DNA of 64,000 bases from Candidatus Micrarchaeia archaeon (lineage in GTDB: Archaea > Micrarchaeota > Micrarchaeia > CAILAH01), in the NCBI GenBank assembly GCA_038874595.1, contig JAVZCB010000006.1:9599-73598 (forward strand), in the 5' to 3' direction. Under the pieces are notes generated by a model. The model ran no database searches. It saw only the letters and a list, made by a program, of their open reading frames with translations, and was not told the origin of the DNA. Position numbers and translations under genes: made by a program. How positions within the stretch are numbered: the stretch's first letter is position 1; the number at the start of each line of letters is the position of its first letter. Positions 9,992-63,243 of the stretch are shown here, piece after piece.

Positions 9992-9997
9992 TAAGGT

Positions 9998-11021: not shown

Positions 11022-11026
11022 CGTGA

Positions 11027-11659: not shown

Positions 11660-11671
11660 CTCTTTTTCATT

Positions 11672-12334: not shown

Positions 12335-12336
12335 GC

Positions 12337-35003: not shown

Positions 35004-35052
35004 TATTGAATGGGTAAAAAACCTTAAAAAGGTTGAACGGGCCTAAGCATTT

Positions 35053-45173: not shown

Positions 45174-46082
45174 TTGGTTCCTGCGGATTATTCAATGGTC
45201 CCTGTTAGATGCACTGAAGGAGTACGGTGTACTTATGCGCCGGCAATGTACTGCAAGACGGGTTGCAATAGCAATACAGGCAAGTGCCTGCCAGAAACTG
45301 CAAGTGCAGATGGGTGCATTGAGGACGGTGAATATGTAATCCAGTCAAGTTCTGGTAAATTGCCGGTAAAGCGTGTAATCAACAGGGATGGTGCATCTGA
45401 AATAACAACATTACAGCTGCTAAACCACGCCAAGCACTGCGTTGGAGATTACATATCAACTGATGCGGATACGAAAGTTTGGATAAGGCACAAGAATGGC
45501 ATGATTTCTTACATAGGGCCGGGCTCGCAGTATATTGACGGTGCGCGCGGCAAGAATGTTATAGAGGCAAAAGGCAAGGTGCAAGTAAAAAACCCAGGCG
45601 CACCAACCGAGGAGGAAAAAGGTATTGTTACGCTAGTTCCTCTGCAAATTGCCGCTGAGATACAACAAGGAACTGATTATGGTACTGTTTCCCATATTCA
45701 TCCTGACTTGAGAGATTTCTACATAAAGAATACATTAAAGGGAGGTCCTATTGACATATGGATATATAACCAGCACTCTAACGTTATATACGAGATATAT
45801 GATGACTACGAAACTGTAACTGTGCTTGAAGGAGAAGTTGTTGCAATAGACCTGAAAACAAAGAAACAGTTTTCAATTACAGCCGGAAAACAGCTAACAC
45901 ACAAGCTCGGGCAAGAGGTTGGGCCAAACGTCGAGGAAAACATTAAAGATGTAGATTTAAATAAGATTGAAGATAACTCAACACCTCCAGAGCAAGGAGT
46001 AAGCACGAGCGGTGGTATATGTACAATTGGGTTGAGTATGGTCTTGATTTTGGGAGGTCTCTATATAATAAAAAAGGATTGA
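45174..46082 (+). CDS. Cys-rich / FecR-like beta-sandwich protein with a C-terminal anchor, probable C-terminal part of the same gene
   Basis: Its frame is open from 45078 and encodes more Cys-rich sequence (EIVCGSEVCKRFCLKDY...) before the listed TTG. It has no signal peptide of its own. FecR-like VGDYISTDADTKVWIRHKNGMISYIGPGSQY. C-terminus GGICTIGLSMVLILGGLYIIKKD. Confidence 0.6.
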   Translation: MVPADYSMVPVRCTEGVRCTYAPAMYCKTGCNSNTGKCLPETASADGCIEDGEYVIQSSSGKLPVKRVINRDGASEITTLQLLNHAKHCVGDYISTDADTKVWIRHKNGMISYIGPGSQYIDGARGKNVIEAKGKVQVKNPGAPTEEEKGIVTLVPLQIAAEIQQGTDYGTVSHIHPDLRDFYIKNTLKGGPIDIWIYNQHSNVIYEIYDDYETVTVLEGEVVAIDLKTKKQFSITAGKQLTHKLGQEVGPNVEENIKDVDLNKIEDNSTPPEQGVSTSGGICTIGLSMVLILGGLYIIKKD

Positions 46083-46100
46083 TTAAACAAAAACTTAATT

Positions 46101-46388
46101 TCACTTTTTTATTAAAATGAGCAATAGCAAGGTCCCTAGTATAAACGCACCTATTTTACATTCAATTGGATTTTTGATATCGCTCTTATCGATATGCCCT
46201 GAGTATTTATTAATGGTTTCAGCCGTGCAGTTTGAAACACATTCATTATAGCCTGGCTGTGGTTTCCAGCACCTGTCCCATTCCTTATCCCATTTTCCCT
46301 TGTAATCTTTGCAGCATTGCACCTCGCAATTTGTGCCTGCAAAAAGAAGGCCTGCAAGCAATACAAGTATCAGTATTGTTTTAAGCAT
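46101..46388 (-). CDS. small Cys-rich exported protein with a Cys-Gly C-terminal anchor
   Basis: Start set to ATG 46388 (MLKTILILVLLAGLLFAGTNC), with a TATA-like TTTTAAAATT 24-36 nt upstream. C-terminus PIECKIGAFILGTLLLLILIKK. Confidence 0.6.
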   Translation of the reverse strand: MLKTILILVLLAGLLFAGTNCEVQCCKDYKGKWDKEWDRCWKPQPGYNECVSNCTAETINKYSGHIDKSDIKNPIECKIGAFILGTLLLLILIKK

Positions 46389-46446
46389 ATTATCCCCCAT
46401 AATAATATCTCTATTAATTTTAAAACAGGAAGCACGCATATTTAAT

Positions 46447-49140
46447 TTATAATCCAAACAGCTGCTTGGCCAGGTCAAACAAGTAATTGAAGATTCCTTT
46501 AAAGAAATCTAGCACCTGCTCGATAAATCCGGTTTTTTGGCCGCTTCCACCAGTTATGGTTGACGATTGTGATTCAACAATTGTTGAGAGTGTATACACG
46601 TCTAGCTTCCCTTTTTTATACTCACCATAGTACATTCCGGTTTCAGTGGCTTCCATACCCAACGGCATAACCTGCGAAAAACTACTCGCCTCAACAAGTG
46701 GATAACTTCTATCATAAATCTTTATTCCCATAGGCTCGTGCAACTCCATTACGTATCTCCCGCCAGGGGAAACAGATACATAGGTTAAATCCTTATTTGC
46801 ATAATGGCGCATCTTCCAATTCTCATAATACGTTATGGTATTGTATTTCCATGCAACAAAATCATCAGAATCAACGTAATCTCCCAGGACAATTTCATCA
46901 TTATATAGAATGCCTTCATTATCTTTATGGCCCATATGCTGCAAGAGATGATATGTTGGTGAATTAAGCGTGTAAACACAGAACAAATTATTGCATTCGC
47001 CAGCAACACGATTTCTGGAAACACCCAACTTTCTTATAGTAGTATTATGTGTTCCCCCTTTACAGTCATCATATGCCGAAAGCATACACCCATCAATGTA
47101 CCCATACCCAGGTGCGTAAAACCTGCCTGAGGAGGCTATAACATCAAGCAGCTCGGTCGCTGAAGAGTCAGTTAAACTTTCAGCATACTCCGGCCATTCC
47201 CACATCTCAATTACGTTTCCGTTTTGGTCAAAGAGGTATCCCTTAGGTGTTGTATCCCCTCTTTTTGCACTCTTTCTTGCTGCAATGCCCGCATACAACT
47301 TCGAGCCATCATATGCAGGTATAAGAGTTGATGCTTGCTTTCCTAAGCATATGCTATTTGTTCGGTATGAATATATCTCATTGCCGTTTGAAAGGTCATA
47401 TGCATAAATCTTGCAGAACAAGTCTGTTTTATCTACTGTTAAAACGTATGCATATTTGCCATTCTTGCTGAATTTGATTATGTGCGGTACTTCATTCTGG
47501 TAAGTTTTCGACCATAAAAGATTGGATTTGTTAAGCAGTACATAATCATCTATGGTGTCTGGTCTTAGGCATTTTATTTCCTGTGGAGGTAACCTGATAT
47601 CAAATGCGCTCTCGCTTGTTGTAAAATTCCTTATGAGTGCAGTACAATTTTGGGAGGTTATCACAATCGTGCCGCGCGTGCCTTTTATAGGCGCACTTAT
47701 TATCCCTTTTGCACTTTCTTCATTTGTCCCATTAATATTACCATACACCCCCCTATACTGCCCTTTATCGGTTAGGATATTGTACCATCCTTTTGATGGA
47801 TAGCCAACATATATATCTTTGGGCTTTTCAACAAGTACAAAATCAACATACTTATAGATATAATGAGCGTGCGTTATATCGCTTCTATTATAATTGAACT
47901 GTATTGCTGTTGAGCTATCTAAGTAGCCTGTTTTGTGTGCTGTTAATGTATATTTACCCTCCATTGTAAATGGCCGCAGGTGCCTAAATGTATATGACCC
48001 ATCTGCACGTGTTGTTACAGGTGTTTTGCCATTATCTATGTAAACGCTTGCGTTTGGGATTGGGTTCCCAAGCTCATCAGTAACCTTTCCTTCAACGATC
48101 AGAAATTGCGGATTTAGGTAAACTGTTTTGTAGTCTATCAAATTATTATCTGCATCTGTTATTTCAATCCTAACATAGTCCGGGTATGCGTCCAGGCAGA
48201 GCACTTCCGTGCTGAAAGGTATAGTTTCATTGGCGCTTATTGTGAAATCATTAAATGAATACCTCATATCCCCAAGGTAGTAGCTTATGTAATAATTGCC
48301 AGGTAGTTCACCGCGGTTTGTTACATTGACCTTAATTTCAAACTTATTTGTATACGGCTCAATACGACGATATATGATTGGGCCATCAAAAAATGCATCT
48401 GGTGGAAGTGGCAGGTCATCAACTATTAGCTTATAACTATTGTATGAAGAATGCTCATCACCGGCTTCAACAATGTTTGAGTCTGAAGGCTCAACAACAA
48501 CTTTTACAACATTGAACATATCCTTCTGGTGCTCCCAGGGTATGCTGAAGCTCTTTTCGTACCAGCAATTAGGATATGGAACATATGCTGGGTTGTAAGG
48601 AGTTATGCATGTTAGTTTTTCTGTGTGTATTAGCCTCATAGGAGGGTCAAGATTAACTTTGTCATCATAACCAGCATAGATGTAAACGTCTGCACTGTCT
48701 ATATAAGCAAAACCAGCATTGATTACACGGACATATAACCTCTTATCTTTCTCTATATATTTCACGGTGTCACTTGCAACAACCAAATCTGGTGCAAATG
48801 ATTTATCATCCAGTGCACATTCTTCTTCACATCTTTTTATGATAGGCACAATATATGCATTAATATCATGAGCGCATTGCAGCGATTTCATAACAGTCAT
48901 AAAATCAGGCCCGCGAGTAACATAACTTGCCCATGCATTAACAATATCCAAAAACATATCCTTTGTACCGTATGAGCACCATTTAGTTATAAATACGTAA
49001 GCAGGGTTTTGCCTCCACGCCAACGTATATGCGGCACATTGTGAAACGCAAATATCGTATTGGCTCGCAGTAGCCGCAGCATAGTATGAGCTTAACAAAA
49101 CGCAAAGTACAACTAGGATTTTGAAGTATCTCGCGGTCAT
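46447..49140 (-). CDS. large exported protein (897 aa) with a carboxypeptidase-regulatory-like Ig-fold segment
   Basis: Signal FKILVVLCVLLSSYYAAATA. EGKVTDELGNPIPNASVYIDNGKTPVTTRADGSYTF is a CarboxypepD_reg-like motif. The rest is unrecognised. Confidence 0.6.
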   Translation of the reverse strand: MTARYFKILVVLCVLLSSYYAAATASQYDICVSQCAAYTLAWRQNPAYVFITKWCSYGTKDMFLDIVNAWASYVTRGPDFMTVMKSLQCAHDINAYIVPIIKRCEEECALDDKSFAPDLVVASDTVKYIEKDKRLYVRVINAGFAYIDSADVYIYAGYDDKVNLDPPMRLIHTEKLTCITPYNPAYVPYPNCWYEKSFSIPWEHQKDMFNVVKVVVEPSDSNIVEAGDEHSSYNSYKLIVDDLPLPPDAFFDGPIIYRRIEPYTNKFEIKVNVTNRGELPGNYYISYYLGDMRYSFNDFTISANETIPFSTEVLCLDAYPDYVRIEITDADNNLIDYKTVYLNPQFLIVEGKVTDELGNPIPNASVYIDNGKTPVTTRADGSYTFRHLRPFTMEGKYTLTAHKTGYLDSSTAIQFNYNRSDITHAHYIYKYVDFVLVEKPKDIYVGYPSKGWYNILTDKGQYRGVYGNINGTNEESAKGIISAPIKGTRGTIVITSQNCTALIRNFTTSESAFDIRLPPQEIKCLRPDTIDDYVLLNKSNLLWSKTYQNEVPHIIKFSKNGKYAYVLTVDKTDLFCKIYAYDLSNGNEIYSYRTNSICLGKQASTLIPAYDGSKLYAGIAARKSAKRGDTTPKGYLFDQNGNVIEMWEWPEYAESLTDSSATELLDVIASSGRFYAPGYGYIDGCMLSAYDDCKGGTHNTTIRKLGVSRNRVAGECNNLFCVYTLNSPTYHLLQHMGHKDNEGILYNDEIVLGDYVDSDDFVAWKYNTITYYENWKMRHYANKDLTYVSVSPGGRYVMELHEPMGIKIYDRSYPLVEASSFSQVMPLGMEATETGMYYGEYKKGKLDVYTLSTIVESQSSTITGGSGQKTGFIEQVLDFFKGIFNYLFDLAKQLFGL

Positions 49141-49187
49141 GCTTTAGCATCTCCAAAAAAATTTAAGAATTTAAAATAAAGCAAAAG

Positions 49188-50153
49188 CTACATTACAATC
49201 GCCCTGTTCATTGGGAATGTTGTTCCGTGCTTTATGTCCGTTGACCCTACTACATATTGAATTACTCTGCTTAGCCCTATCCCGCAACCCGCATGCGGTA
49301 CGTTCCCGTATACTTTAAGATGTTCTAAATACCAATCAAATGCCTTTATGCTACCGCCCTTGCTTTCAAGCCTCTTTAACATGGGCGATTCTCTTAATCT
49401 TCTGTATACGTTTTCATATGTGTACTCTCTTTCAGCAGCACCTACGCATTCACCACCAAGAGGTACTATTAAATCTGCACTGTTCACCAACTCTGGCCGG
49501 GCAGCATTCTCACGCATATTGAAGAATTTTATTGCTTTTGGGAAATGTGTTATGAAAGTTGGCAAATTATCGTATTGCTTAACAATGTATTGCTCATGCG
49601 CTGATTTTAAATCATCTCCCCATTTTAATCCAAATGGTTTTTCTAGCATGGTAATTGCATCGTCATAAGATATTCTCTGAAAATTGTCTATCGCCCTCTC
49701 TAATTCGTTTGGATTGCCCCCAACCTTGATTATACTCTCTCTTGCACTATATAATACATTACTAAACATACTGCTAACGGTTGCTTCAATCTCCCTTAAT
49801 AGCCCTTCAAAATCCGTCTCAAGCTCAATCTCAACAAGTGTAAATTCGGTCAGGTGCCTTTCATCAACCTCCGGTTCTGCCCTGAAACTTGGGCCTATTG
49901 TATATGTCTTTTTTAATTGAGGAATAAGCGATTCAAGATACAGCTGCCCTGTCTGGCTGAGGTATGTTTTCTCTCCAAAGTAATCAACTTCAAAAAGGGT
50001 ATCTATGTTCTCACATGCCCCTGTTGCTCTAGTTATGTGAGGCACACTTACCTCATGATATCCTTTACGTGCGAAATACTGCCTCGCCCCATGCAGCATT
50101 GCAGACTCAATTCTTGCAATGTGTTCCGTTTTCCCATTCATTTTCCAGGACAT
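49188..50153 (-). CDS. stand-alone class II aaRS catalytic core of Asp/Asn type (archaeal asparagine synthetase A-like)
   Basis: FARKGYHEVSVPHI (motif 1), IGPSFRAEPEVDERHLTEFTLVEIE (motif 2), GCGIGLSRVIQ (motif 3). At 321 aa it has no N-terminal OB anticodon-binding domain. Confidence 0.7.
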   Translation of the reverse strand: MSWKMNGKTEHIARIESAMLHGARQYFARKGYHEVSVPHITRATGACENIDTLFEVDYFGEKTYLSQTGQLYLESLIPQLKKTYTIGPSFRAEPEVDERHLTEFTLVEIELETDFEGLLREIEATVSSMFSNVLYSARESIIKVGGNPNELERAIDNFQRISYDDAITMLEKPFGLKWGDDLKSAHEQYIVKQYDNLPTFITHFPKAIKFFNMRENAARPELVNSADLIVPLGGECVGAAEREYTYENVYRRLRESPMLKRLESKGGSIKAFDWYLEHLKVYGNVPHAGCGIGLSRVIQYVVGSTDIKHGTTFPMNRAIVM

Positions 50154-50274
50154 TATACCACCTGTTGGGATATTCCTGGAATTGTTGATACCTTTTTATG
50201 GAAAAATTCCTTACTTAAATGAAGTTTTATACATATGAGTAAACTTTTAAATTGGATTAATTAGAATATCTTCC

Positions 50275-51540
50275 ATGACAGTGGTGCAAATTCAATCCAC
50301 ATCGAGTTGTGATTTGCAGGTTAAAGCGCTTTTATCATCCCTAAGGAAGAAAAATATAACTAGTGAGCAGGAAAAAGTTGTTCACGAAATAGCTCAATCA
50401 TTAACTAGAAGCATAACGGATAAAGATATGCTGAAAGATGCCCTATCAACATTAGAAGAAATAGCCTTGAGTTCCAAGTTCAAATTTGAACAACTAGGTT
50501 TGTTGAAGTTCATTGTTGATAAAACATCTAACTATTCATGGAGTGCCCTTTATGCCCTTAGCTTCATAATTGAAAGCCCGCATTTTAATGAGAAGGAGTG
50601 GAATGTTTTGGAGCAGCTACTTAAAAAAGCACCAGGAAATGTAGAGGCAGTTTTATGGGAGATTGAGTCTTCGGTTCGTTCCCCTGCGGGAAGGTCCTGG
50701 AAACTTATCACATTTGTTCTTGAGAAATCACAGAAAGAGAATAATCCTTTAAAACTCTTAAAATCTCTGAACGCCATTGCTGAGAATAAGGATTTTAACA
50801 TAAAAAGCGTACTTGAGATGTATAGTACTGGGGAGAAACTTGCAAGAGAGTTAGGAGCGTCATTTAACGATCCTTTGGTTTGTGTTAGTTTTGCTTATTC
50901 AATATCTGTGATAGGCGAGAAGAAGACACGCGAGTTGTACTCAAAAACAGGTATCGAATACTTTGCCAGATACTCAAAGGATATGCTGAAGGAGGTATAT
51001 TCAAATTTAAGTAAGGAAACAAAAGCACCCGTCCTTGTTGTTGCATTTAACAAGTATGATATTAATGGCGTATTCTATAAAGAAGGCAGGAGGCTGGACA
51101 GTTTTCTCAAAAGTAATTATAAGATTTTGATTTTTGAGTGCGCTTCTGAGAATGAGTTTTATAATAAAGTAGAGAGTTTTGCAAAAAATGGCAAAATACA
51201 TACATTAATAATAGGAGGGCACGGGGAGCCACATAAGATTATGCTTGGTGGTAACACGGACAGTGCCAGGTTGGACCTGGGCGATGAGAAGGAATTGATT
51301 AAGATAAAAAAACATTTTATCAAAAATCCAAAAATAATCTTAGTGGCATGTTCTACAGGCAAGGATAATAATTCTATGGGCGCAGTTATATCCCGTGTTA
51401 TGGATGCAACAGTGTTTGCACCCCCAAAGCCAGATCATACTACCGAATATGTTATAGGCAAGGATGGCTTAATAAAAAACGTTAAATATACGGGGCCAAC
51501 AAAGAAATTCCTAGGAAATATACCTAGAAAGAACGAATAA
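50275..51540 (+). CDS. hypothetical protein: helical-repeat N-terminal region plus a C-terminal domain with a clan-CD-like His-Gly / Ala-Cys dyad
   Basis: IHTLIIGGHGEPHKIMLGG ... PKIILVACSTGKD are hydrophobic strands ending in HG and AC, as in caspase/C80/CHAT-type peptidases. Confidence 0.4.
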   Translation: MTVVQIQSTSSCDLQVKALLSSLRKKNITSEQEKVVHEIAQSLTRSITDKDMLKDALSTLEEIALSSKFKFEQLGLLKFIVDKTSNYSWSALYALSFIIESPHFNEKEWNVLEQLLKKAPGNVEAVLWEIESSVRSPAGRSWKLITFVLEKSQKENNPLKLLKSLNAIAENKDFNIKSVLEMYSTGEKLARELGASFNDPLVCVSFAYSISVIGEKKTRELYSKTGIEYFARYSKDMLKEVYSNLSKETKAPVLVVAFNKYDINGVFYKEGRRLDSFLKSNYKILIFECASENEFYNKVESFAKNGKIHTLIIGGHGEPHKIMLGGNTDSARLDLGDEKELIKIKKHFIKNPKIILVACSTGKDNNSMGAVISRVMDATVFAPPKPDHTTEYVIGKDGLIKNVKYTGPTKKFLGNIPRKNE

Positions 51541-51600
51541 TAAAATTAATTTCATGGAAATAACACAACATAAACAGTAGTACGTATTATTAATGGCTAT

Positions 51601-53367
51601 CTACATGATAGCAGTATCGGTTCTAATGTTCATAGTATCATAAAGTTCCTGCAACAATTGAAGCTCCTTTTTCATATTATGATTTTTTGGGTTGTGCTTA
51701 ATGAACAGGCCCCCAAACTCTTCGATTATGCCGTCCTCATCTTTACGGTCTCCTATCATTATTACCTCGTTTAACTTTGCATATTTAGATAACTTCATGA
51801 AAGGCAGTTTGGTCTTCTTATCACCACCAACACTTTCGCTATCAATAATCTCAAAAATCATATCTTTGAAAGGGGACTTTGCCAGCTCTGCACGTAGTTT
51901 CTCCGTATTTGCATTGCTCACAACGATGTTTTTCATGCCAAGTGATTGCGAGAACCTGAATAAATCAAGGGCATCCTTATACTCAAGGTAATCAATTGAA
52001 ATGCTATGCATCTCTTTTGCAGTTGAAACTATCTCTTTATTATCAACATTTATACTCATCAGGTTAAGCAATTCCTTCTCAAATTCGCCCCACCTATGCC
52101 TTCTTATATCCCCATTGTAGCTACCTCTCATTTCTTTAACACGCCTATATAGCTCAAGATACTGCTGTGCGGTAATATTTGTATTAAATTTCTTGTTAAG
52201 ATATTCCGCAAGCACGGTGGCACATTTGTTATAGCTTTTCTCAAAATCAACAAGCGTATTGCCCCAATCAATGCAAAGGGCAGTATATGGCCAATTATCC
52301 TTTTTAAATTTAAGATGTGTGGTTTTTTCTGAGATTTCTTTTATCCTATCAAGTAATGTGTAATCTGGCCCAAACGCATCGTTCCCAACTATGTTTAGTT
52401 TAGGATTGAAATCCTTATCCAGCAGCATAAGGTTTGCAAATGCACCCTCCTCTATGCGGGCATCCTCAAATACCCCGTATCCGCTTGTAATGCAAGCTTC
52501 TACTTCTTCTAAGATAATGCCCTTTGCTTTACATAATATGCCCAGCTGCTTGTACTGCGAAAACGTTCTTCCTGTGGCCAAGCCATCAGTCGAGATGTTT
52601 ACCCTTATCTTATTTTCCAGGAGTTCTTCAATAGGCGGCAGCCTATTTTTCAACCATAAGCTTGATACAGGGGATATGGCGACAATAGCATTTGCCTTTT
52701 TAATGAGCATAATCTCCTTATCTGTAAGATAATTGCAGTTTGCTAAAATTGTTTTTTCGGTTAAGAGGCCCGCCTCATACAATCTTTCAATAGGTGTTAT
52801 CCCATAACGTTTGTAAGAGCTCTCAATTTCAGGTATTGTCTCGTTTATGTGTATAGTTAAGATTTTACCTTTAAGTGAACTGAGCTGTGTAATAGTATCC
52901 TCATCAATCCTATCAAGTGAATGTACCCAAACGGCCTGGTAAGATTTTGACCTTTCTATGAAATTATTGAGATAACCTGACAATTTAGGTGAGTTCATAA
53001 GAGGGTATCCGCTTATCAGTGATAGCCTATTATTAGTAGAATAATAGATGCTGCGGCCAACCAACGCTGCGCGGATACCAAACCCTTCAGCCAGCTTCCC
53101 CGTCAGTATCTCGGTTTCCTTTCGGTATAAATCTGCATTTTTTAGGAAGTATTCATCACCATATTTTAGATATTCCGAAAGAGAGAGTGATGGCAAGTTT
53201 AGAAAAATAGACTCGCCAAGGTGCATATGCAGGTTTACCGTTCTTGGTTTTATGATTAAGTCTTTATTGTGGTTGAAAGGGGTAATCCTGGCAATAACAC
53301 CATTTTCATCTATAGATATTTTCACTTTTTCCTCTTCAAGTATCCCCTCAATATCCAAGCTATTCAC
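51601..53367 (-). CDS. amidohydrolase-superfamily domain fused to a HAD-type phosphatase
   Basis: N-terminus RTVNLHMHLGES (HxH), LTIHINET, NISTDG. C-terminus ALCIDWGNTLVDF ... VVSNAN ... IMIGDRKDED (HAD motifs). GTG start in a GTGA overlap with the rSAM stop. Confidence 0.7.
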   Translation of the reverse strand: MNSLDIEGILEEEKVKISIDENGVIARITPFNHNKDLIIKPRTVNLHMHLGESIFLNLPSLSLSEYLKYGDEYFLKNADLYRKETEILTGKLAEGFGIRAALVGRSIYYSTNNRLSLISGYPLMNSPKLSGYLNNFIERSKSYQAVWVHSLDRIDEDTITQLSSLKGKILTIHINETIPEIESSYKRYGITPIERLYEAGLLTEKTILANCNYLTDKEIMLIKKANAIVAISPVSSLWLKNRLPPIEELLENKIRVNISTDGLATGRTFSQYKQLGILCKAKGIILEEVEACITSGYGVFEDARIEEGAFANLMLLDKDFNPKLNIVGNDAFGPDYTLLDRIKEISEKTTHLKFKKDNWPYTALCIDWGNTLVDFEKSYNKCATVLAEYLNKKFNTNITAQQYLELYRRVKEMRGSYNGDIRRHRWGEFEKELLNLMSINVDNKEIVSTAKEMHSISIDYLEYKDALDLFRFSQSLGMKNIVVSNANTEKLRAELAKSPFKDMIFEIIDSESVGGDKKTKLPFMKLSKYAKLNEVIMIGDRKDEDGIIEEFGGLFIKHNPKNHNMKKELQLLQELYDTMNIRTDTAIM

Positions 53368-54437
53368 CTTGGTTTCAGGATGATTGTTGGTAAGTAATCT
53401 TCGTGAACAAAGGTATTATTTTTGCTAACATCATATACAATGTTTATATCATCAAAATAATTCAAGGCAATATTATTTAAGCTAGGACAGTAAGGGTCCC
53501 GTTCCAGCAGTGTCCTTCCCCATAATATGCGCCTGTCTATGGTACCCCCCATGCATTGGCTGGCCAAAGAGCATTTTGTACAGCGAACGGGTACTGGATT
53601 TTTCTCTAGTATTTCAAACTTGAACGCCCGCAGTGATATGTTATCAGTAAATATATTGCTTGTCCTCCATGTGGCATCGATAAGATATGTTGAGGGGGTT
53701 ATCTCACCATTTTCAAGAATGCGCATTGAAGATTTGCCCACAAAATCCCCTTTATACTTGTTTTCTCTTAATATTGATGAAAATAGCACATCTGATATTG
53801 ATACAACATAAGTATTCTGTAATAACCATTTCATAACTTTGTAAAATTGCAACGGCTCCACAACGTATTTTTTAAGCCCGGGGTAGGTTGGCCTTAGGAT
53901 ATTTATACGTATATTAGAGTTGTATTCACTGGCAAGCTTTAATATCAGTTCCATGTTATTTTCGTTAAAATTGATATTCATAGCAACCGTAACAATTGTT
54001 CTGCTTATGTTGTTGGAGTTGCATAAGTCAAGCGTGTCAACAGCGAGCTTCCACGCACCTTTAAATCCCCTGAAGTTATCATGGAGTTTGCTCTCACCAA
54101 AATCAATGCTAACATCTACATCGTTTAGCTTTTTTATTAGCTCAACGTGCTGCACAAATTTAGCTAAACTTCCATTTGTTGTTAACCCTTGCAAAATGCC
54201 AGTTTCAGTGGCACAGAACTCAAAAAGCTTCCACCAGGTTTTATCCAGGACATTCTCACCAGTACCATAATTTATAGACTCAATGTATTGCTTGTTGCTC
54301 CTTATGAACATCTTGGCAAATTTAAGCTTGTTATCTTTTTGAATGGAAGTTTCACATCTAACCTTCTTGCTGTAACAATGGCCACAGTGCATATTGCAAC
54401 TGGAAGTATACCCCCATCCCAGTTTCCATTTTCTCAA
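53364..54437 (-). CDS. radical SAM enzyme with a SPASM/twitch-like Cys-rich C-terminus
   Basis: GYTSSCNMHCGHCYS is CX3CX2C. C-terminus VRCTKCSLASQCMGG...RDPYCP. TTG start in a TTGA overlap with the upstream stop. Confidence 0.8.
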   Translation of the reverse strand: MRKWKLGWGYTSSCNMHCGHCYSKKVRCETSIQKDNKLKFAKMFIRSNKQYIESINYGTGENVLDKTWWKLFEFCATETGILQGLTTNGSLAKFVQHVELIKKLNDVDVSIDFGESKLHDNFRGFKGAWKLAVDTLDLCNSNNISRTIVTVAMNINFNENNMELILKLASEYNSNIRINILRPTYPGLKKYVVEPLQFYKVMKWLLQNTYVVSISDVLFSSILRENKYKGDFVGKSSMRILENGEITPSTYLIDATWRTSNIFTDNISLRAFKFEILEKNPVPVRCTKCSLASQCMGGTIDRRILWGRTLLERDPYCPSLNNIALNYFDDINIVYDVSKNNTFVHEDYLPTIILKPR

Positions 54438-55990
54438 GAGTATTCACCCATTTTAAGAACTTCTTTTTCGGAAAGGCCTGCTATAAACTTGCCACGATTT
54501 TTCAGCAATTCCTCATTCTCAAGCGGTGGCAATATTTCATTGTTGATCGTAAAATTTCCTCTCAGTAGTGAGAACAGGTATGTTATTTCAAAGTACGTAT
54601 CTGGTAATTCTACCTTATACTCCAACCCGCCTGGCGCCCTGAAAAGCTTAACGAACCTTTTGTAATCCTGATTAACATACCTGAGCTGCGACTTGCCAAA
54701 TGATAGTATCTCCTGATTTGAATAAGTTGATATAAATGGCCATTGGTTAATCATCTTGTCCCTAAATACTCCAATTAATATTCGTCCATCACTTGAAAAT
54801 ACAAGTGGGGAGTATCCAGGCCTGTCAAGAAAACTTGGGTATCTTAAATCAATGATATCATTATTCTTGATATCTAAAAATGCGTTGCTTAGGTAAAACC
54901 CATTCCTTTCAAGCTCAAAAACGGCCTCAAGCGGGTTGCGTATGCCCTTGCCTAGGAGCGATTTTGTTAACACGAAAATCCCATCATCATTGAACTTGTG
55001 CTCTGAAGATGTAAGTACCCCATCGGTCTTTCTTTGTGAAATTTTTTCTGCAATACCTATTGGATTACCAAACCCCACATAAAACTTGACGCCCTCCAAG
55101 CCCGCAAGAAGGTCTGCGTGCCATTTTATAATAGAGTAGTCTGTTATTGTGGGCGGCATAGGCTCTTTTAACGTTACAAAGTATCTACCATCCCCCCTGT
55201 AATATTGTGATATAAAGTATAGCAGTCTATTCTGGCCATCACTTTTTGGAAGCTCATATAATTTACTTGTGCCAGGATAACAAAACGTAAAAAGTACATA
55301 TTTCAGTTTTGAGCTTGCATCATTCAATTCAAGGTTAAGTGTCTGCAGGTCCGATGGGCTTACCTCATATTTCAATATCTTCCTGTCGATTCGCTTTTTC
55401 TTTTTTATTCTTTTCTCAAATGTACGCAGCTTGCTTATATCCAAGACATCTGGGTACATCTTGCTAAGTTGTTTAAGTAATTCCAGGGTGATAGGCCTTA
55501 GATCTATATCGGTTGTGCCTCCAAGAACTTTACCGTTTTTTAGGTCTAGAATTGTCCTATCATTTGAGATAATGCTTGAAGAAGTCAGCAGTGAAATTAA
55601 AAACATCAGGGATGATTTGCCACTCCCCGCATCCCCCACAATAAGGCCGCATTCTTTTGAGTTTCCAACACACGCTGAATGTATAAGGGCGTTTCCAGAT
55701 AGCCCGTGCAACGCCGCAAGGTCCATAATCAGCTTATAAACAACATCCGGATAGTAAAGGTCTTCTGATATGCCGTAAATCCTGCTTTTTCCCACAATTT
55801 CTGATTTCTTACTGTTGGAACGGATCGACTGCGCGGGAGGATTATATTCGCATAAAACCTTGCAGCTGTATGAAGGAATGCTCTCGCGCGGAAAGAAGTC
55901 CTTTTCAAGATATTTAACCAATCCGGCGTTTTGTGTTTTGAAGCAGACCGTTTTGTTTTTTGAGCTGGCACGTATGTAATATTCACCCAT
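54434..55990 (-). CDS. HPr-kinase-C-like P-loop protein with an uncharacterised ~200-aa C-terminal domain
   Basis: NALIHSACVGNSKECGLIVGDAGSGKSSLMFLI parallels the HprK C-domain (H..av......gvLi.G.SG.GKS). I recognise no family for the remainder. Confidence 0.6.
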   Translation of the reverse strand: MGEYYIRASSKNKTVCFKTQNAGLVKYLEKDFFPRESIPSYSCKVLCEYNPPAQSIRSNSKKSEIVGKSRIYGISEDLYYPDVVYKLIMDLAALHGLSGNALIHSACVGNSKECGLIVGDAGSGKSSLMFLISLLTSSSIISNDRTILDLKNGKVLGGTTDIDLRPITLELLKQLSKMYPDVLDISKLRTFEKRIKKKKRIDRKILKYEVSPSDLQTLNLELNDASSKLKYVLFTFCYPGTSKLYELPKSDGQNRLLYFISQYYRGDGRYFVTLKEPMPPTITDYSIIKWHADLLAGLEGVKFYVGFGNPIGIAEKISQRKTDGVLTSSEHKFNDDGIFVLTKSLLGKGIRNPLEAVFELERNGFYLSNAFLDIKNNDIIDLRYPSFLDRPGYSPLVFSSDGRILIGVFRDKMINQWPFISTYSNQEILSFGKSQLRYVNQDYKRFVKLFRAPGGLEYKVELPDTYFEITYLFSLLRGNFTINNEILPPLENEELLKNRGKFIAGLSEKEVLKMGEYS

Positions 55991-56014
55991 ATGCTAAAAA
56001 CACGATGAACTAAC

Positions 56015-56025
56015 CCTTAAAAACT
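56015..56025. promoter_or_regulatory. central TATA-like CCTTAAAAACT in the 57-bp divergent spacer
   Basis: 25-35 nt from ATG 55990 (minus strand) and 23-33 nt from ATG 56048 (plus strand). Confidence 0.4.
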
Positions 56026-56047
56026 TTGTGATTGACTCTATTCTGAT

Positions 56048-56638
56048 ATGGATACCACAATCAGTGCCTACCTGAAAAACCACGCGGAATATGCAAAGCG
56101 CCATCTGCATGATTATCAGTTAAGGCCTTTAAGGATATTTACACGTATGCTTAAGGATAAGGGGAGGATACTTGACGCGGGCTGCGGCCCCGGTAGGGAC
56201 TTGAAGTATTTCATCTCAAAAGGGTACAACGCAATAGGTATTGATTTGTGTGACCATTTTATTGAGCATGCAAGGCGCAGCGGCCTCCATGTTTTGAAGA
56301 TGGATATGCGCTCGCTGGAATTTTCTGATGGCTATTTTGATGGCGTATGGTGCTGTGCCTCATTCTATCATATCCCATCCAAGGACGCTCTCGGTACTCT
56401 TATCGGATTTAACAGGGTCTTAAAGGATAGGGGGGCACTTTTTATTTCTGTAAAGGAGGGAAAAGGCGAGCGGCTTCTTGAAGACCGATTGGATAACCGC
56501 TCTAAAAAATTCTACAGGTTTTACTTAATTGGAGAGCTTTTCCACCTTGCCGATGATGCAGGTTTTGATGTTTTGCTTAGCAAAAGAGAAATGGGTGAAT
56601 ACTCAGTATGGCTTCAGTTCCTGATGAGAAAAAGGTGA
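56048..56638 (+). CDS. class I SAM-dependent methyltransferase (paralog 1)
   Basis: RILDAGCGPGRDLKYF (motif I), FDGVWCCASFYHI, LKDRGALFISV. Confidence 0.85.
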   Translation: MDTTISAYLKNHAEYAKRHLHDYQLRPLRIFTRMLKDKGRILDAGCGPGRDLKYFISKGYNAIGIDLCDHFIEHARRSGLHVLKMDMRSLEFSDGYFDGVWCCASFYHIPSKDALGTLIGFNRVLKDRGALFISVKEGKGERLLEDRLDNRSKKFYRFYLIGELFHLADDAGFDVLLSKREMGEYSVWLQFLMRKR

Positions 56639-57228
56639 AGGAGACAATCAAAGCATACGATGGGTATGCAGACTACTACATATCAAGGCACGCGAAGTGG
56701 GATGAGGTTGAGAAGTATAAGCGTTATTTTATTTCCAGATTGCCCGCAGGGGGCAGTATATTGGATGCGGGCTGCGGCCCCGGCAGGGACTTGAATTATT
56801 TCATCTCAAAAGGGTACAATGCAATAGGTATTGATTTATGCAGCAGTTTTATTAAGTATGTAAAGCGCAACAGGCTGCCAGCCGTCAGGATGGATATGCG
56901 CACCTTAAAATTTCCGGATAACTATTTTGATGGCATATGGTGCTGTGCCTCATTCTTTCATATCCCTTCTGAAGATGCTGACATGGCATTGCAGGAATTC
57001 AACAGGGTACTGAAACCAAAAGGGGTTATTTTCATATCTGTAAAACAAGGCAGGGGGGAAAGGTTTATCCAGAAAGATGTGTACAAAAAAGGCACACATA
57101 TGTTTTACAGGTTTTATACGAGGAAAAGCATTACGGAATTGCTTGACAAGAATGGCTTTGAACCTATTAATGTCTGGACTGAGACAACAAGAAGCAAGTG
57201 GGTCTCGGTAATTGCAGTAAAGAAGTAA
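56608..57228 (+). CDS. class I SAM-dependent methyltransferase (paralog 2)
   Basis: SILDAGCGPGRDLNYF, FDGIWCCASFFHI, LKPKGVIFISV. Overlaps paralog 1 by 31 nt. Confidence 0.85.
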   Translation: MASVPDEKKVKETIKAYDGYADYYISRHAKWDEVEKYKRYFISRLPAGGSILDAGCGPGRDLNYFISKGYNAIGIDLCSSFIKYVKRNRLPAVRMDMRTLKFPDNYFDGIWCCASFFHIPSEDADMALQEFNRVLKPKGVIFISVKQGRGERFIQKDVYKKGTHMFYRFYTRKSITELLDKNGFEPINVWTETTRSKWVSVIAVKK

Positions 57229-58089
57229 TTAATTGGTTACATATTTATACGCTGCAAACGTTAGAACGCTTATTAGAAATATTAAACCACCTGCACACGC
57301 ACCACTTTTTTCTGTTTCATCATCGATTTTTTGTATGCCGCCTATACCTTTGCTGTCACTCGAAATAACCATCTGATTGTTTGTAAGCACTATTGATTTT
57401 CCATATTTGTCAGTAACCGTTACTTCCCCCTCAACAACTTTTACAGTGGTTTCCCCCTTAGCATTATCGTATGCTACATGGAATTTTGTACCTTTCACAC
57501 CTGTTGAAGTTGCACCCGATTTAACCCTAAATATAGTATCCCCTCTCTTTGTTACATCCGAAAAGATTGCTCCCTTAGCAAGCTCAATTATCACATCAAA
57601 CGTTGTAAGGTTTTTCCTCTTTAATTCCTTCATCTCAAGCTCGGTGTTCTCATCCATATACACCTTTGAGCCATCAGCAATATTCATTGTTATCTTACCA
57701 TCGCTTCCTGTTTTTACTGCCGATTTCTCATTTATAGGTATCTCAGTTACAATGCGTGCCCACTCACCGTTTGGCATCCGCAGGTATACATTCCCGGAAA
57801 AGCTAGCAAGCTTGGCAAATGCATTTTCAGTACCCCCTTTACCAACACCTACAACCGGCCCCTGTCCTTCCGCAGGGCAATAGCATATGCATGGCTCACC
57901 CTGTGGGCATTCGCAGGATACATATGCATGTGCTTTTTCGCTCCAGCTGCCTGTACAGCTTGAAATACACGGTATCCCATTCACACCGCCGCATAAGAAG
58001 CAGTCTTTTGAGCCTGCCGGGCAGCTCCCAGCATATGCAAAAGAGACGAATATGGAAATGATTATTAACCAAACTACAGCTGGTCTCAT
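57229..58089 (-). CDS. exported Cys-rich + FecR-like protein with a Cys-Gly C-terminal anchor
   Basis: Signal VVWLIIISIFVSFAYAGSC. Cys-rich head, then FecR-like GNVYLRMPNGEWARI...VKTGSDGKITMNIADGSKVYMDENTELE. C-terminus SGACAGGLIFLISVLTFAAYKYVTN. Confidence 0.6.
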   Translation of the reverse strand: MRPAVVWLIIISIFVSFAYAGSCPAGSKDCFLCGGVNGIPCISSCTGSWSEKAHAYVSCECPQGEPCICYCPAEGQGPVVGVGKGGTENAFAKLASFSGNVYLRMPNGEWARIVTEIPINEKSAVKTGSDGKITMNIADGSKVYMDENTELEMKELKRKNLTTFDVIIELAKGAIFSDVTKRGDTIFRVKSGATSTGVKGTKFHVAYDNAKGETTVKVVEGEVTVTDKYGKSIVLTNNQMVISSDSKGIGGIQKIDDETEKSGACAGGLIFLISVLTFAAYKYVTN

Positions 58090-58176
58090 GACTAGATATA
58101 CACACTTTGTTTTTAAAATTTTATATTGATTTTAACAGGCGCATCAGCTTATAAAATTACAAAGTATTTATTGCAT

Positions 58177-59331
58177 ATGCGTGAAGCTGAGCGCATAGTT
58201 TTATTCATAGTTACAACCATTATAATCATACTCATCGCATTTGTTCTGGCTAGCCAACCTGTTATTTTAGAATCACAAAAAGCAAAAGAGATGCGTGCGC
58301 TCGTAGAGAGCTCGTCCCCGCTGGATACATCTCTCGCCAGAAAGGAAGTACTGCTGAAAGTTGATGAGTTTGCAATATCTACATTCCCATTTAGCAGTAT
58401 CCTAAGAAGTGTTTATTCATCTGAGTTTATGCAATTCTTCCATTCCAGGATAACAAAAGCCATCTCTGAAATCAGAGCTGCAAAAGTGCCAGCCGGTAAA
58501 GTACGCGTTTGGTACCTGTATAATATGGGGGTGGTTGCCAAGTCCGCGAATATCACGATAGGGTTTGATATTGGAGGCACATGGCTTGACCCGTCAATTG
58601 GAGAGCTTTCAAAAGATCTAGATGTATTGGTGATTACACATAACCACGCGGACCATTTCGACCCGGCAGTTGTCAAGGGTGTGCTCCAAAAAGGCGGCAT
58701 AGTAATTTTCCCCGGTGAGAAAGTATCTATAAGGGAGATTACATCAAGCGATGGCCTGCGGAAGACATACCTGATTGATAGGGATGAAAACGGTATCGAG
58801 CCGGCCGAGGCACTTGAAAAGATTTACGGAATCAGCCCGAAAAACGTAGTATTTCTGAAATCCGGCGAGACAGTTGATATCAGGGGCGTGCGTATAACTT
58901 CATATGCCGCAAAGCATTATGTTGATTGGGAACTGGATACAAAATGGGAGATTCTCCGCAATACTTCTGTCTCTTGGTTTTATGTGAACATTTCAAACAG
59001 GACTATTTTACATACGGGTGATGGGTATCTATTATATCGCGAAAAGGATTACGAGAGACTTGGAAATATGCCGATTGACATTATGATAATACATTATCCT
59101 GATGATCGTGCACTTGAGAAGTACTCTAGCTCACTTCATAAAGTGAAGCGAATAGTACCACTGCACCTTTACGAGTTTGGTCATGGATTGGAAGAGGTGT
59201 CCCTGAATATGCGATACAAACAAGCTCTTGAAAATTATGATAATGGGAAGCTCAGGTTTGCAGTTAGAAATATCGCCACTAACATCTCATACACTCCAAT
59301 GATTTGGGGTGAACATATAGATATTGGGTAG
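58177..59331 (+). CDS. membrane-anchored MBL-fold metallo-hydrolase
   Basis: N-terminal TM IVLFIVTTIIIILIAFVLA. LVITHNHADHFD is HxHxDH. TATA-like CTTATAAAAT lies 20-28 nt upstream of ATG 58177. Confidence 0.7.
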   Translation: MREAERIVLFIVTTIIIILIAFVLASQPVILESQKAKEMRALVESSSPLDTSLARKEVLLKVDEFAISTFPFSSILRSVYSSEFMQFFHSRITKAISEIRAAKVPAGKVRVWYLYNMGVVAKSANITIGFDIGGTWLDPSIGELSKDLDVLVITHNHADHFDPAVVKGVLQKGGIVIFPGEKVSIREITSSDGLRKTYLIDRDENGIEPAEALEKIYGISPKNVVFLKSGETVDIRGVRITSYAAKHYVDWELDTKWEILRNTSVSWFYVNISNRTILHTGDGYLLYREKDYERLGNMPIDIMIIHYPDDRALEKYSSSLHKVKRIVPLHLYEFGHGLEEVSLNMRYKQALENYDNGKLRFAVRNIATNISYTPMIWGEHIDIG

Positions 59332-59351
59332 TCCAATTTTTTGTTAATGGT

Positions 59352-59798
59352 TTACTCATTCTCAATAAATTCCCTTATGTATTTTTCAGATAAGCCGACA
59401 TCCCTTGCACCCTCGAGAACAACATTTTTATAGTTCTCGCTTGGTTTTCCTATTTTTAATGGTGCTCTCAAATATGCAAAAGCATGATAAATATTCCCAT
59501 CATCACCAATACACTCGATATTCTTTTTCTGATAAGCTGTAGGAAACCCTTCATACCAATCTAACGCTTTTTCACATTTATCATCTATCTCAAAGATCGC
59601 ACCCTCTACAATATCACCAGTAGATTCAACTATATTAGCAACAGCCCCTCTTGATGTTATAGAATTCCCATCATAAACAAACTTGTATCCAAACAATTTT
59701 GCCTTTGTTATGAACGTGGCACCCGGGCATCTTTTGCGCATTTGCCCCAAATTCATATTAGAACCGTATGCAAAGTAAAATTTACTCATTATAATCAC
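59352..59798 (-). CDS. gamma-glutamylcyclotransferase (AIG2/GGCT-like)
   Basis: FYFAYGSNMNLGQMRKRCP ... GAIFEID ... LDWYEG. Confidence 0.8.
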   Translation of the reverse strand: MIIMSKFYFAYGSNMNLGQMRKRCPGATFITKAKLFGYKFVYDGNSITSRGAVANIVESTGDIVEGAIFEIDDKCEKALDWYEGFPTAYQKKNIECIGDDGNIYHAFAYLRAPLKIGKPSENYKNVVLEGARDVGLSEKYIREFIENE

Positions 59799-59838
59799 CC
59801 AATCGTTTACGAATGATCTTCATATGCGTTAATTTATT

Positions 59839-60291
59839 CTATTTATTTACCGCATAAAGACCATAGAACCCTAAAACAAACAGGATCAAATATGCAGGGC
59901 CGGGGCATTGCCTTTCTACTTCGCCGCAATCAAATGCAGCCCATCTCATACACTCATCTGCAGAACTATAGCAAGCCATCATTTCATTCTGTTGGCAATC
60001 AAACTTATCATTGCCAGAAGATACCTCAGATATGCATTTTGATAATTTTGCCACGCATTCTTGTGGAGCATTGCATTCCCCTGCATAGTATTTTGCACTC
60101 ATGATTGGGTATTGTGCGCTTAGGCATGATAACCCGCTTGTTTTATACATATCCGAACATGTTTTATCCATTTTTCCTTTCTCATCAAATTTGCAGTTTG
60201 CGCATGCATTTTTGTATGCATCAAGAGAACAACCTGCCGTGACAACATTAAGCAGGAATATAACACCTAGAATAATCACGATATATTTCAT
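59839..60291 (-). CDS. Cys-rich exported protein with a Cys-Pro-Gly C-terminal anchor
   Basis: Signal MKYIVIILGVIFLLNVVTAGCS, about 14 Cys, C-terminus ERQCPGPAYLILFVLGFYGLYAVNK. Confidence 0.55.
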   Translation of the reverse strand: MKYIVIILGVIFLLNVVTAGCSLDAYKNACANCKFDEKGKMDKTCSDMYKTSGLSCLSAQYPIMSAKYYAGECNAPQECVAKLSKCISEVSSGNDKFDCQQNEMMACYSSADECMRWAAFDCGEVERQCPGPAYLILFVLGFYGLYAVNK

Positions 60292-60317
60292 ACCAAAGAG
60301 TATAAACAAAAAATATT

Positions 60318-61154
60318 TTAATTCCTCGCAGCCCATTTTTCCATATCATAGAGGACCAACATTTCACAATCTGAATTGCCTTTGCACTCCTTGAGCAGGA
60401 ACACGCCGTCAGATTCCATTGCCTTGTTCCATCTGGCCCAGCCGATACACCTATACTTCCAATCTATACTGCTTATGCTATCACAATAACTCTCATCACC
60501 AGTTACCATCGCCAGGCACGTGGCTTTTGAATCTGCTTCACCGCCACCGGAAGCAGGCTTAAACTGGTCGCATGCCCTTTTATCCCGTTTTATTTTAGCA
60601 TAATCCATCAAACACGTATACCCGTCTTTACACTGCTCTAGAGTTATTTGTCCTTTCTCCATTTTGATGTCAGCTTCACAGTTAGCTGGGCTCTTTGATT
60701 TTTCGCAATATTTTGAGTCAAGTGTTGCAACAGCATAATGCTTGTAACAATCAGTCGATATCGTCAGGTTTACTACTTTTCCATCCTTAACGCCAGTAAC
60801 GTAAGGATTAACAGAATCGCATAACGACGGTTGTTTCTTAACCGCAGCTATCATCGATTCACAAACCTCCTTCTCACCGTGCTGCCTCTGCAACTCGCAC
60901 TTCTTCATATCCATCCCGAAAACCGCTTCACACATCTGTCTCCACCGTGTTGTCTTTATGTTTGGGCAGAGTGAGAGCATATACTGTGGTGCATTAACAA
61001 GTGAGCCGGTTAAGCTTGATTTATCATCAACAGAACCAGAATCCTGTTTTACGGACATACCATCAGATTGCTTCTCATCAGTGCCCGGTTGTGTTATAGG
61101 GCAGCTGAATAAAATAACCAGGAGAATACCGCAACAAACAAGCTTATCGATCAT
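60318..61154 (-). CDS. Cys-rich exported (possibly lipid-anchored) protein
   Basis: N-terminus LVCCGILLVILFSCPI is lipobox-like. More than 20 Cys are spread through repeated ...C..(K/S)....C... modules. No C-terminal TM. Confidence 0.55.
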   Translation of the reverse strand: MIDKLVCCGILLVILFSCPITQPGTDEKQSDGMSVKQDSGSVDDKSSLTGSLVNAPQYMLSLCPNIKTTRWRQMCEAVFGMDMKKCELQRQHGEKEVCESMIAAVKKQPSLCDSVNPYVTGVKDGKVVNLTISTDCYKHYAVATLDSKYCEKSKSPANCEADIKMEKGQITLEQCKDGYTCLMDYAKIKRDKRACDQFKPASGGGEADSKATCLAMVTGDESYCDSISSIDWKYRCIGWARWNKAMESDGVFLLKECKGNSDCEMLVLYDMEKWAARN

Positions 61155-61226
61155 TTAATCACTGATATAGAAAATGCGATGTTATCTATAAAAGTGTATC
61201 TTTGATAGGTTTGATGTTAGTATTGC

Positions 61227-63143: not shown

Positions 63144-63243
63144 GAATAGATTGGTACTTATAATCCTTATTTAATTTATTTGTGGTTGGTTTCCTGGCAG
63201 TAACAATTTAAATTATGGGTGAGATTCTGGTGGTATAGGGTTC

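Follow-up and report, generated by a model that had tools for sequence, protein, structure and literature searches.

What does a radical SAM enzyme do in the company of a kinase-like P-loop protein, a purine-type deaminase and a phosphatase-like domain, and do these proteins belong together at all? The question is raised by three genes chained on the minus strand of a 64,000-nucleotide stretch, here called the window, of contig JAVZCB010000006.1 from a Candidatus Micrarchaeia archaeon (assembly GCA_038874595.1, positions 9,599 to 73,598). They encode a 518-aa P-loop protein related to HPr kinase (HPrK), a 357-aa radical S-adenosylmethionine (SAM) enzyme, hereafter rSAM, and a 588-aa fusion of an amidohydrolase to a HAD-fold domain; two methyltransferase genes diverge from them across a short spacer (Table 1). 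Comparison with other loci shows that the four predicted domains, namely rSAM, DadD/MtaD-type deaminase, HPrK-superfamily P-loop and HAD with a D-x-G-x-T motif, travel together in archaea and bacteria. The set is thus a real, conserved, patchily distributed and uncharacterised cassette, for which a function can be proposed at the level of substrate class only. Our leading explanation, held tentatively and with a little less than even confidence, is that the window carries the Micrarchaeia version of a set coupling rSAM chemistry to adenine nucleoside/nucleotide processing.

Homologue searches with the 518-aa protein covered about 15 billion proteins and gave a single full-length relative, P0002 (547 aa, 34% identity; database of 5.8 billion clusters). 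Its contig, L001, is archaeal as judged by an Alba gene and carries genes for an rSAM, an amidohydrolase, a HAD and the P-loop protein in this order. The amidohydrolase and the HAD are unfused there, and identity to the window amounts to 28% for the rSAM, 29% for the amidohydrolase and 39% for the HAD. A transposase-like open reading frame (ORF) at 40-702 and an rve-integrase ORF at 5739-6776 bracket this second cassette, which suggests that it could be mobile.

Further loci were fetched by the HPrK-like family alone, not by the rSAM or the deaminase, and rSAM and amidohydrolase genes are adjacent in about half of the independent lineages thus obtained (L011-L018, L019, L020, L025, L028 and L031). 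Gut Clostridia (L011-L018; L011 from Clostridium sp. CAG:343) carry genes for a PHP protein, an unknown protein, an rSAM/SPASM enzyme, the amidohydrolase, the HPrK-like protein, a PPase-like protein and a HAD. The same type of parts recurs in Christensenellaceae (L019) and in a metagenome-assembled genome (MAG) labelled Nomurabacteria (L025), the rSAM in both being of the family found in the window; in L025 no HAD is seen before the contig end. An uncultured Clostridia MAG (L020) has them together with an HD protein and a B12-dependent rSAM. In L028, the closest short relative, the set comprises rSAM/SPASM, amidohydrolase, HPrK-like, methyltransferase and Ham1/ITPase genes, and in L031 it comprises HAD, HPrK-like, methyltransferase, amidohydrolase, a second HPrK-like and rSAM genes. 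Such co-location is far beyond chance. An earlier note on this DNA had treated the three genes as one functional unit, and this is borne out by the four domains lying together in one further archaeal genome and at many loci of bacteria. None of the outcomes that it had listed against its own proposal was observed: genes never co-located, a P-loop protein of a well-known unrelated family, or an rSAM matching a housekeeping enzyme. Its statement that no system of this composition has been described also holds, since the literature search found no published description of the gene set.

Some parts of the cassette are exchanged from locus to locus. In two uncultured Clostridia MAGs, whose sets consist of an rSAM-adenosine deaminase fusion, a NUDIX protein and the HPrK-like protein, the COG0402 amidohydrolase is replaced by the PF00962 adenosine deaminase part of fusions of 810-816 aa (L021 4779-7229 and L022 4794-7226). 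Instead of the HAD, or beside it, there is NUDIX in L021, Ham1/ITPase in L028 (81.9 bits), the HD protein and the B12-binding rSAM in the L020 cassette (7273-13204), both inserted between the rSAM/SPASM and amidohydrolase genes, and in L011 and L019 the PPase-like protein together with a PHP protein similar to 3',5'-bisphosphate nucleotidase. The known substrates of Ham1/ITPase are deaminated purine nucleoside triphosphates (NTPs). In variant loci the HPrK-like gene lies beside Prs, a uridine-kinase-like gene, Tmk, CTP synthase or a PF01887 SAM hydroxide adenosyltransferase; those that lack an rSAM have as neighbours Tmk, the uridine-kinase-like gene, CTP synthase, the SAM hydroxide adenosyltransferase, or a HAD with glycosyltransferases. 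Because the purine-type deaminase can be swapped for an adenosine deaminase, and because it is accompanied by a changing series of nucleotide and polyphosphate hydrolases, our working substrate is an adenine nucleoside or nucleotide. The pattern of exchange (COG0402 for adenosine deaminase; HAD for NUDIX, Ham1, PHP or HD) makes this a concrete and testable substrate class. Nucleoside or small-molecule tailoring, which had first been offered as the alternative to peptide maturation, is therefore the option that we favour.

In this scheme the rSAM, with one predicted auxiliary [4Fe-4S] site, would transform an adenosine-type substrate or at least release 5'-deoxyadenosine (5'-dA). The deaminase would convert the adenine ring into hypoxanthine, and the HPrK-like enzyme would transfer phosphate from ATP or pyrophosphate to the nucleoside or sugar. 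The HAD would then remove phosphate and release the product, a step that NUDIX, Ham1/ITPase, PPase-like, PHP or HD proteins would carry out in other lineages, and the two divergent methyltransferases would probably methylate the product in this genome. As a working guess, the product would be a modified inosine- or adenosine-like nucleoside. A fuller version, possible but doubtful, would be a pathway from SAM or an adenine nucleotide to a modified hypoxanthine- or adenine-type nucleoside serving as antimetabolite, immune molecule or signal, with the HPrK-like protein as a small-molecule phosphotransferase and with horizontal spread among human-gut Clostridia, a MAG labelled as candidate phyla radiation and DPANN archaea. 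If the nucleoside proposal is true, it would define a new rSAM reaction on a nucleoside or nucleotide, assign a small-molecule role to a branch of the HPr-kinase superfamily for the first time, and point to a metabolite produced both in common human-gut Clostridia and in DPANN archaea, groups understood as dependent on other organisms and of almost unknown chemistry.

Several points weigh against this proposal, which is drawn from gene content. Five HPrK-like loci (L023, L024, L029, L032 and L033) lack the rSAM and the deaminase, or lie amid glycosyltransferase or polysaccharide-deacetylase genes. For both the rSAM (GeoRSP, MftC, anSME) and the kinase (HprK-related A/B, ScmC, lasso-peptide kinases), the nearest named relatives are found in peptide systems. 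The deaminase of the window, with Asn210, and the HAD, which lacks the Asp at motif I position +2 (Asp+2), may have altered or weak activity. Moreover, the rSAM component is not one clade, being of the four-Cys type in the window, a seven-Cys SPASM enzyme elsewhere and a non-SPASM form in L021. Such variety is as compatible with a role set by the cleavage of SAM itself as with one specific nucleoside reaction.

This last point leads to clearance of by-products, the main rival explanation, which we consider fairly unlikely. Here the DadD/MtaD-type deaminase would remove the 5'-dA released by the rSAM and the S-adenosylhomocysteine (SAH) released by the methyltransferases, both inhibitors of the enzymes that form them; the kinase and the HAD may process 5'-deoxyinosine or 5-deoxyribose, or may act in some unrelated main reaction catalysed by the rSAM. 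The amidohydrolase is indeed nearest to deaminases of methylthioadenosine (MTA), SAH and 5'-dA, and DadD of M. jannaschii, which deaminates 5'-dA and SAH (PMC10978960), provides a precedent. Across the loci the deaminase stays while the type of rSAM varies, up to the fusion of adenosine deaminase and rSAM in L021, and one HPrK-like locus is paired with another SAM-cleaving enzyme, that of PF01887. A kinase or a HAD-like phosphatase is also employed in the known routes of 5'-dA and 5-deoxyribose salvage, the dihydroxyacetone phosphate shunt and the 7-deoxysedoheptulose route (PMC6079011, PMC8102628). These routes, however, need a nucleosidase or phosphorylase plus either an isomerase and an aldolase or a transketolase, and the conserved core holds none of the enzymes by which 5-deoxyribose would be released and used. 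In addition, the hydrolytic partners Ham1/ITPase, NUDIX and the PPase-like protein are directed at 5'-(poly)phosphates, and a 5'-deoxy nucleoside cannot bear such a group. Finally, the further loci inspected for the rSAM family of the window, those of five other members in varied contexts, were without a deaminase. The hosts are, we presume, mostly small-genome anaerobes and may lack MTAN, which would suit this explanation; if it is true, the cassette would be a dedicated 5'-dA/SAH detoxification unit for organisms possibly without MTAN and would inform rSAM chemistry in minimal genomes.

The amidohydrolase domain of the fusion protein matches PF01979 (Amidohydro_1) with 43 bits against a cutoff of 25, among solved structures it comes closest to the MTA/SAH deaminase 4f0r, TM0936 and aminofutalosine deaminase, and H47, H49, H173, E176 and D261, which form the HxH, HxxE and beta-8 Asp motifs, are invariant in alignment A8. 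This agrees with the MtaD/DadD type proposed before. Membership in the same COG0402 subgroup, with the same motifs, ties it to DadD, MtaD and TM0936 and so to by-products of rSAM enzymes and methyltransferases (PMC10978960). Unlike these enzymes, the copy in the window is joined to a HAD, its length is smaller and its beta-6 position is occupied by Asn, and it falls far below the equivalog cutoff: the 5'-deoxyadenosine deaminase model NF005557 (cutoff 522) gives 40.7 bits for the window and 141.8 for L011. Only the window copy departs from the beta-6 His, which is kept in five other cassette copies, and the cassette copies have motifs of their own, for example GYPxMNS.

The second half of the fusion passes the PF00702 HAD model barely (26.5 bits against 26.4). 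It had been called a HAD phosphatase; the HAD fold, the nucleophile Asp and conserved motifs II-IV (the S/T-N, K166 and E193-D194 columns of alignment A9) stand, but Gly takes the place of the Asp+2 general acid in all cassette copies, so that the DxDx(T/V) signature is not kept. Motif I reads D-x-G-x-T-L without exception in the six cassette HADs of A9, and over all cassette copies it has the forms DWGNT, DWGYT, DWGDT (L031), DLGGT and DLGDT. We take it that a few HAD phosphatases, such as E. coli YihX, share the missing Asp+2, and phosphatase activity of the cassette HAD is possible.

The rSAM matches PF04055 with 42.7 bits (cutoff 29.5) and is part of an uncharacterised family, found in bacteria and archaea, with over 150 members at about 40% identity. 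The earlier note had seen a SPASM/twitch-like Cys cluster in its C-terminal part. A SPASM origin is supported by alignment: among PDB entries the family profile matches anSME best, over the full length, and the four C-terminal Cys, exactly four throughout the family, align with C317, C320, C326 and C348 of anSMEcpe, which are the ligands of its auxiliary cluster Aux II (PMC5715301). Pfam SPASM (PF13186), on the other hand, is not matched, and instead of seven Cys there are four, the positions of the Aux I ligands being absent and T299 standing in place of C330. By this alignment the window rSAM is a SPASM-derived enzyme with a reduced C-terminal domain and one predicted auxiliary [4Fe-4S] site. 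The rSAMs of L001, L011 and L028 keep seven Cys, and the non-SPASM rSAM of L021 has no relative in the PDB. Two members of the window's family, P0027 and P0064 (L009 3665-5416), are 583-aa proteins with a C-terminal class I methyltransferase and adjoin an RmlD-like epimerase gene. Their methyltransferase domains were considered as relatives of the window methyltransferases and set aside, the sequences reading unlike, which leaves a generic rSAM-methyltransferase link. In Mahella australiensis (CP002360.1; L005 13363-16389) a rSAM of the window's family is found with two more rSAMs, a gene resembling phosphoribosyl pyrophosphate synthetase and a 355-aa HPrK-like ORF, at a locus interrupted by insertion sequence elements and devoid of deaminase.

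The SPASM ancestry of the rSAM brings in maturation of a peptide made on the ribosome and modified after translation (RiPP), towards which the earlier note had leaned. The HPrK-like kinase would phosphorylate a precursor peptide and the rSAM/SPASM enzyme would crosslink or otherwise modify it. The top NCBIfam matches of the rSAM, GeoRSP_rSAM (TIGR04303) and MftC (TIGR03962), extend over its full length and its top PDB match is anSME, as said above; HPrK-like family members match HprK_rel_A/B and ScmC. The pairing of an HPrK-related P-loop protein with an rSAM/SPASM enzyme is thus shared with the GeoRSP/SynChlorMet cassettes (TIGR04303, TIGR04352/TIGR04355, TIGR04249-04251), the best-scoring named families, which we take from the family descriptions to include a PqqD-family protein and to be peptide systems; the literature search found no published paper on them. 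The scores are nevertheless far below threshold (84 bits against 400 for GeoRSP_rSAM, 74.8 against 265 for MftC, and 36-67 against 200 for the HprK-related families), 5-6 times under the cutoffs in the comparison with the GeoRSP/SynChlorMet cassettes, and our cassette has no PqqD protein while it has a deaminase and a HAD. Lasso-peptide clusters likewise use HPr-kinase homologues (PMC8498205), a likeness at the level of the superfamily within biosynthetic clusters, but no lasso cyclase, protease or precursor is found here. Neither a PqqD domain, nor a protease, nor a transporter was seen in the cassette operons, and Pfam scans gave no PqqD recognition domain in any locus. The remark that no precursor ORF was visible proved right on comparison of small ORFs across the loci: none is conserved, all similarities being antisense shadows of large genes or belonging to the PPase-like gene. 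As neither a precursor ORF nor a PqqD domain was found in the loci, and the genes conserved alongside encode a purine-type deaminase and hydrolases of nucleotides or polyphosphate, the peptide lean was abandoned and we regard such a role as highly improbable. The related idea that Cys-rich exported neighbours are substrates is unsupported as well, such genes being absent from every related locus.

The P-loop protein itself reaches no Pfam or NCBIfam family at cutoff. Its placement in the HPrK superfamily, as the earlier note had it, is right at that level and was reached transitively, through the family of about 300 aa, P0144 and PDB profiles. An exhaustive profile search (1.84 billion representatives) gave 178 proteins at E<=1e-3, nearly all of about 300 aa, with matches almost all confined to profile positions 1-337 and none extending past 337. 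Residues 1 to about 320 align by hhalign with this shorter family, A3, with a probability of 100 and an E-value of 5.5e-39 over template columns 1-310 of 317. Profile A1 finds P0144 (E 2e-9), which scores 42.5 bits in Pfam Hpr_kinase_C (cutoff 33.3), and the window protein itself has no direct Pfam match to this HPr kinase C-terminal family, PF07475. Nor does it match the HprK-related A/B models (TIGR04352/TIGR04355), for which family members reach 20-67 bits against 200; weak matches of family members to HprK_rel_A/B, ScmC and hpr-ser (HPr kinase) point in the same direction. PDB profile searches returned the HPrK/P entries 1jb1 and 1ko7 (E 3e-5 to 8e-5) with alignments of about 53 residues, against 30 for P-loop-only matches. 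H104, the Walker A motif at 119-126 and SNDRT (aa 142-146) are conserved across the family and fit the HPrK pattern of a conserved His ahead of Walker A GxSGxGKS with an acidic (A/S)(D/N)D motif behind it. The window contains no gene for HPr.

The remaining C-terminal region could not be placed, as had been stated before: PDB, hidden Markov model (HMM) and profile searches found no relative besides P0002. A 27-sequence profile of the protein again gave just the same two proteins among the matches listed, and a scan of genome contigs with profile A1, two metagenome scans, a viral contig scan and a plasmid search came back empty. For the region alone, no match of the PDB profile search had an E-value under 0.8, an HMM search across all ORFs of the loci collected up to that point was without significant matches, and comparison with the second HPrK-like paralogue of L031 was not significant. 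Its hhalign comparison with the C-terminus of the HPrK-like family has a probability of 15% and rests on one motif, only a hint that it may have arisen by partial duplication. AlphaFold2 models from an alignment of two sequences had a mean confidence (pLDDT) of 31.3 for the full 518 aa and 34.7 for the C-terminal 198 aa, too low for the models to carry any meaning. Some cassettes contain two HPrK-like paralogues (L031 9971-10999; L029 2696-3598 and 7001-7903), one member of such pairs having a degenerate P-loop, GDVGDGKK. These pairs recall the A/B pairs of GeoRSP and may explain the origin of the extra C-terminal region.

Kinase and phosphatase side by side could also point to a sugar or sugar-nucleotide precursor of a cell-envelope glycan, made by a kinase and a HAD as in heptose biosynthesis (the HAD then corresponding to GmhB) and modified by the rSAM. 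In GmhB-type pathways this pairing is not a futile cycle. Glycosyltransferases of families GT4, GT28 and GT2 and polysaccharide deacetylases do adjoin HPrK-like/HAD pairs in L020, L029, L031, L032 and L033, and the epimerase beside the rSAM-methyltransferase fusions could be added to them. Yet there is no glycosyltransferase in the window or in L011-type operons, and neither the purine-type deaminase, nor its exchange for adenosine deaminase, nor the Ham1/ITPase is explained, so that a glycan role appears very unlikely.

Adenine nucleoside/nucleotide processing, which we prefer, has partial counterparts among known systems. The OxsA/OxsB pair, which combines an rSAM with a phosphohydrolase acting on adenine (deoxy)nucleotides, serves to produce the nucleoside analogue oxetanocin A, and the pairing of an HD protein with a B12-dependent rSAM recurs in L020 (PMC7074753). 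The likeness is one of logic only, set by the types of enzymes: the window has neither an HD nor a B12 domain, and the Oxs system has neither a deaminase nor an HPrK-like kinase. Viperin and prokaryotic viperins with kinase neighbours offer another example of an rSAM acting on an NTP, and the rSAM core gave weak pVip matches (47 bits in PADLOC, 41.6 in NCBIfam). However, the match to viperin NF038283 has a cutoff of 180, covers the core only and ends near residue 171, leaving out the SPASM-type C-terminal domain. PADLOC returned no defence-specific match for any cassette protein, and a defence system, also considered, is unsupported by its generic rSAM-core and methyltransferase matches.

The arrangement of the genes in the window had been read correctly: the five ORFs, the 4-nt overlaps TTGA (54434-54437) and GTGA (53364-53367), the motifs and the 57-bp spacer are all where they had been placed. 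The TTG start of the rSAM is supported, because family members begin with MKWKIGWG, which aligns with M-RKWKLGWG of the window protein, and because a downstream ATG would remove the first Cys of CX3CX2C. In the spacer, TTAAAAA (56017-56023) is nearly central, with 26 nt between it and the start codon on one side and 24 nt on the other. The window as a whole shows no enrichment of this heptamer, having 16 copies where 22.6 would be expected; other copies (35024-35030 and 58110-58116) stand 21-29 nt 5' of the starts at 35053(+) and 58089(-). This suggests that the genome may use it as its TATA box, with leaderless or short-leadered transcripts, and it is plausible that the spacer acts as a bidirectional promoter for the cassette and the methyltransferases.

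Both methyltransferases score 62-74 bits in Methyltransf_11/25 (cutoffs 21-27) and are paralogues of 50% identity; the ATG of the second, a putative start, lies inside the end of the first, giving a 31-nt overlap in another frame. Their proposed tie to the cassette stands in part. Methyltransferase genes adjoin it in three lineages (the window, L028 and L031) but are absent from the other loci, and judged by gene content they are accessory, lineage-specific additions rather than core components.

Table 1. Features of the cassette and its divergent methyltransferase genes (positions in the window; A2, A3, A8 and A9 are family alignments)
Feature	Position	Strand	Basis
518-aa P-loop protein	54434..55990	-	ATG start, ORF list
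HPrK-like domain, aa 1 to about 320	55031..55990	-	hhalign vs ~300-aa family A3; His104, G119-S126, SNDRT
Walker A GDAGSGKS, aa 119-126	55613..55636	-	translation; G124 and K125 invariant in family
Orphan C-terminal region, ~197 aa	54437..55027	-	relatives detected: P0002 only
357-aa radical SAM enzyme	53364..54437	-	TTG start; PF04055
CX3CX2C (CNMHCGHC), C14/C18/C21	54375..54398	-	invariant in alignment A2
Four-Cys auxiliary-cluster motif C286-x2-C289-x5-C295...C317 (CTKCSLASQC...DPYC)	53487..53582	-	invariant in A2
588-aa amidohydrolase-HAD fusion	51601..53367	-	GTG start, ORF list
Amidohydrolase domain, COG0402, adenosine-analogue deaminase type	52333..53367	-	PF01979; HxH H47/H49, H173-x-x-E176, D261
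Asn210 at conserved beta-6 His	52738..52740	-	alignment A8: ANC here, VHC in five cassette homologues
HAD-fold domain, aa ~360-588	51604..52290	-	PF00702; 39% identity to separate L001 HAD
HAD motif I DWGNT, D367-T371, Asp+2 = Gly	52255..52269	-	alignment A9
Divergent intergenic spacer, 57 bp, putative shared TATA box	55991..56047	.	sequence read
Methyltransferase 1, 196 aa, class I SAM-dependent	56048..56638	+	Methyltransf_25/11
Methyltransferase 2, 206 aa	56608..57228	+	ORF list; Methyltransf_11/25

The low GC content that had been attributed to the cassette is real but not specific to it, as it spans the entire region from 46 to 64 kb (37-43%, against 40-52% in 1-46 kb). Positions 46000-64000 may be a horizontally acquired island that holds the cassette and several Cys-rich secreted proteins, among them those encoded at 57229-58089 (with a FecR domain) and 59839-60336. 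Two neighbouring genes were considered as further cassette members and dismissed, being absent from L001 and from the bacterial loci. The first (49188-50153, minus strand) encodes a 321-aa paralogue of the asparaginyl-tRNA synthetase core without the anticodon-binding domain (asnS 241.6 bits against 414, AsnA models lower); a class II aminoacyl-tRNA synthetase gene also lies just upstream of the L025 cassette, probably by coincidence. The second (50275-51540, plus strand), convergent with the cassette, encodes a 421-aa orphan with a weak Peptidase_C80 match (E 0.008), whose His...Cys pair (GGHGEPH ... ACSTGKD) suggests a possible cysteine protease fold. A Lactamase_B_3 (PF13483) gene is found two genes from the methyltransferases (58126-59331, plus strand) and another directly upstream of the L028 rSAM (29-514), pairwise similarity between the two not being significant. 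An Rfam tRNA match in the window spans 119 nt, enough to accommodate an intron, which fits an archaeal source.

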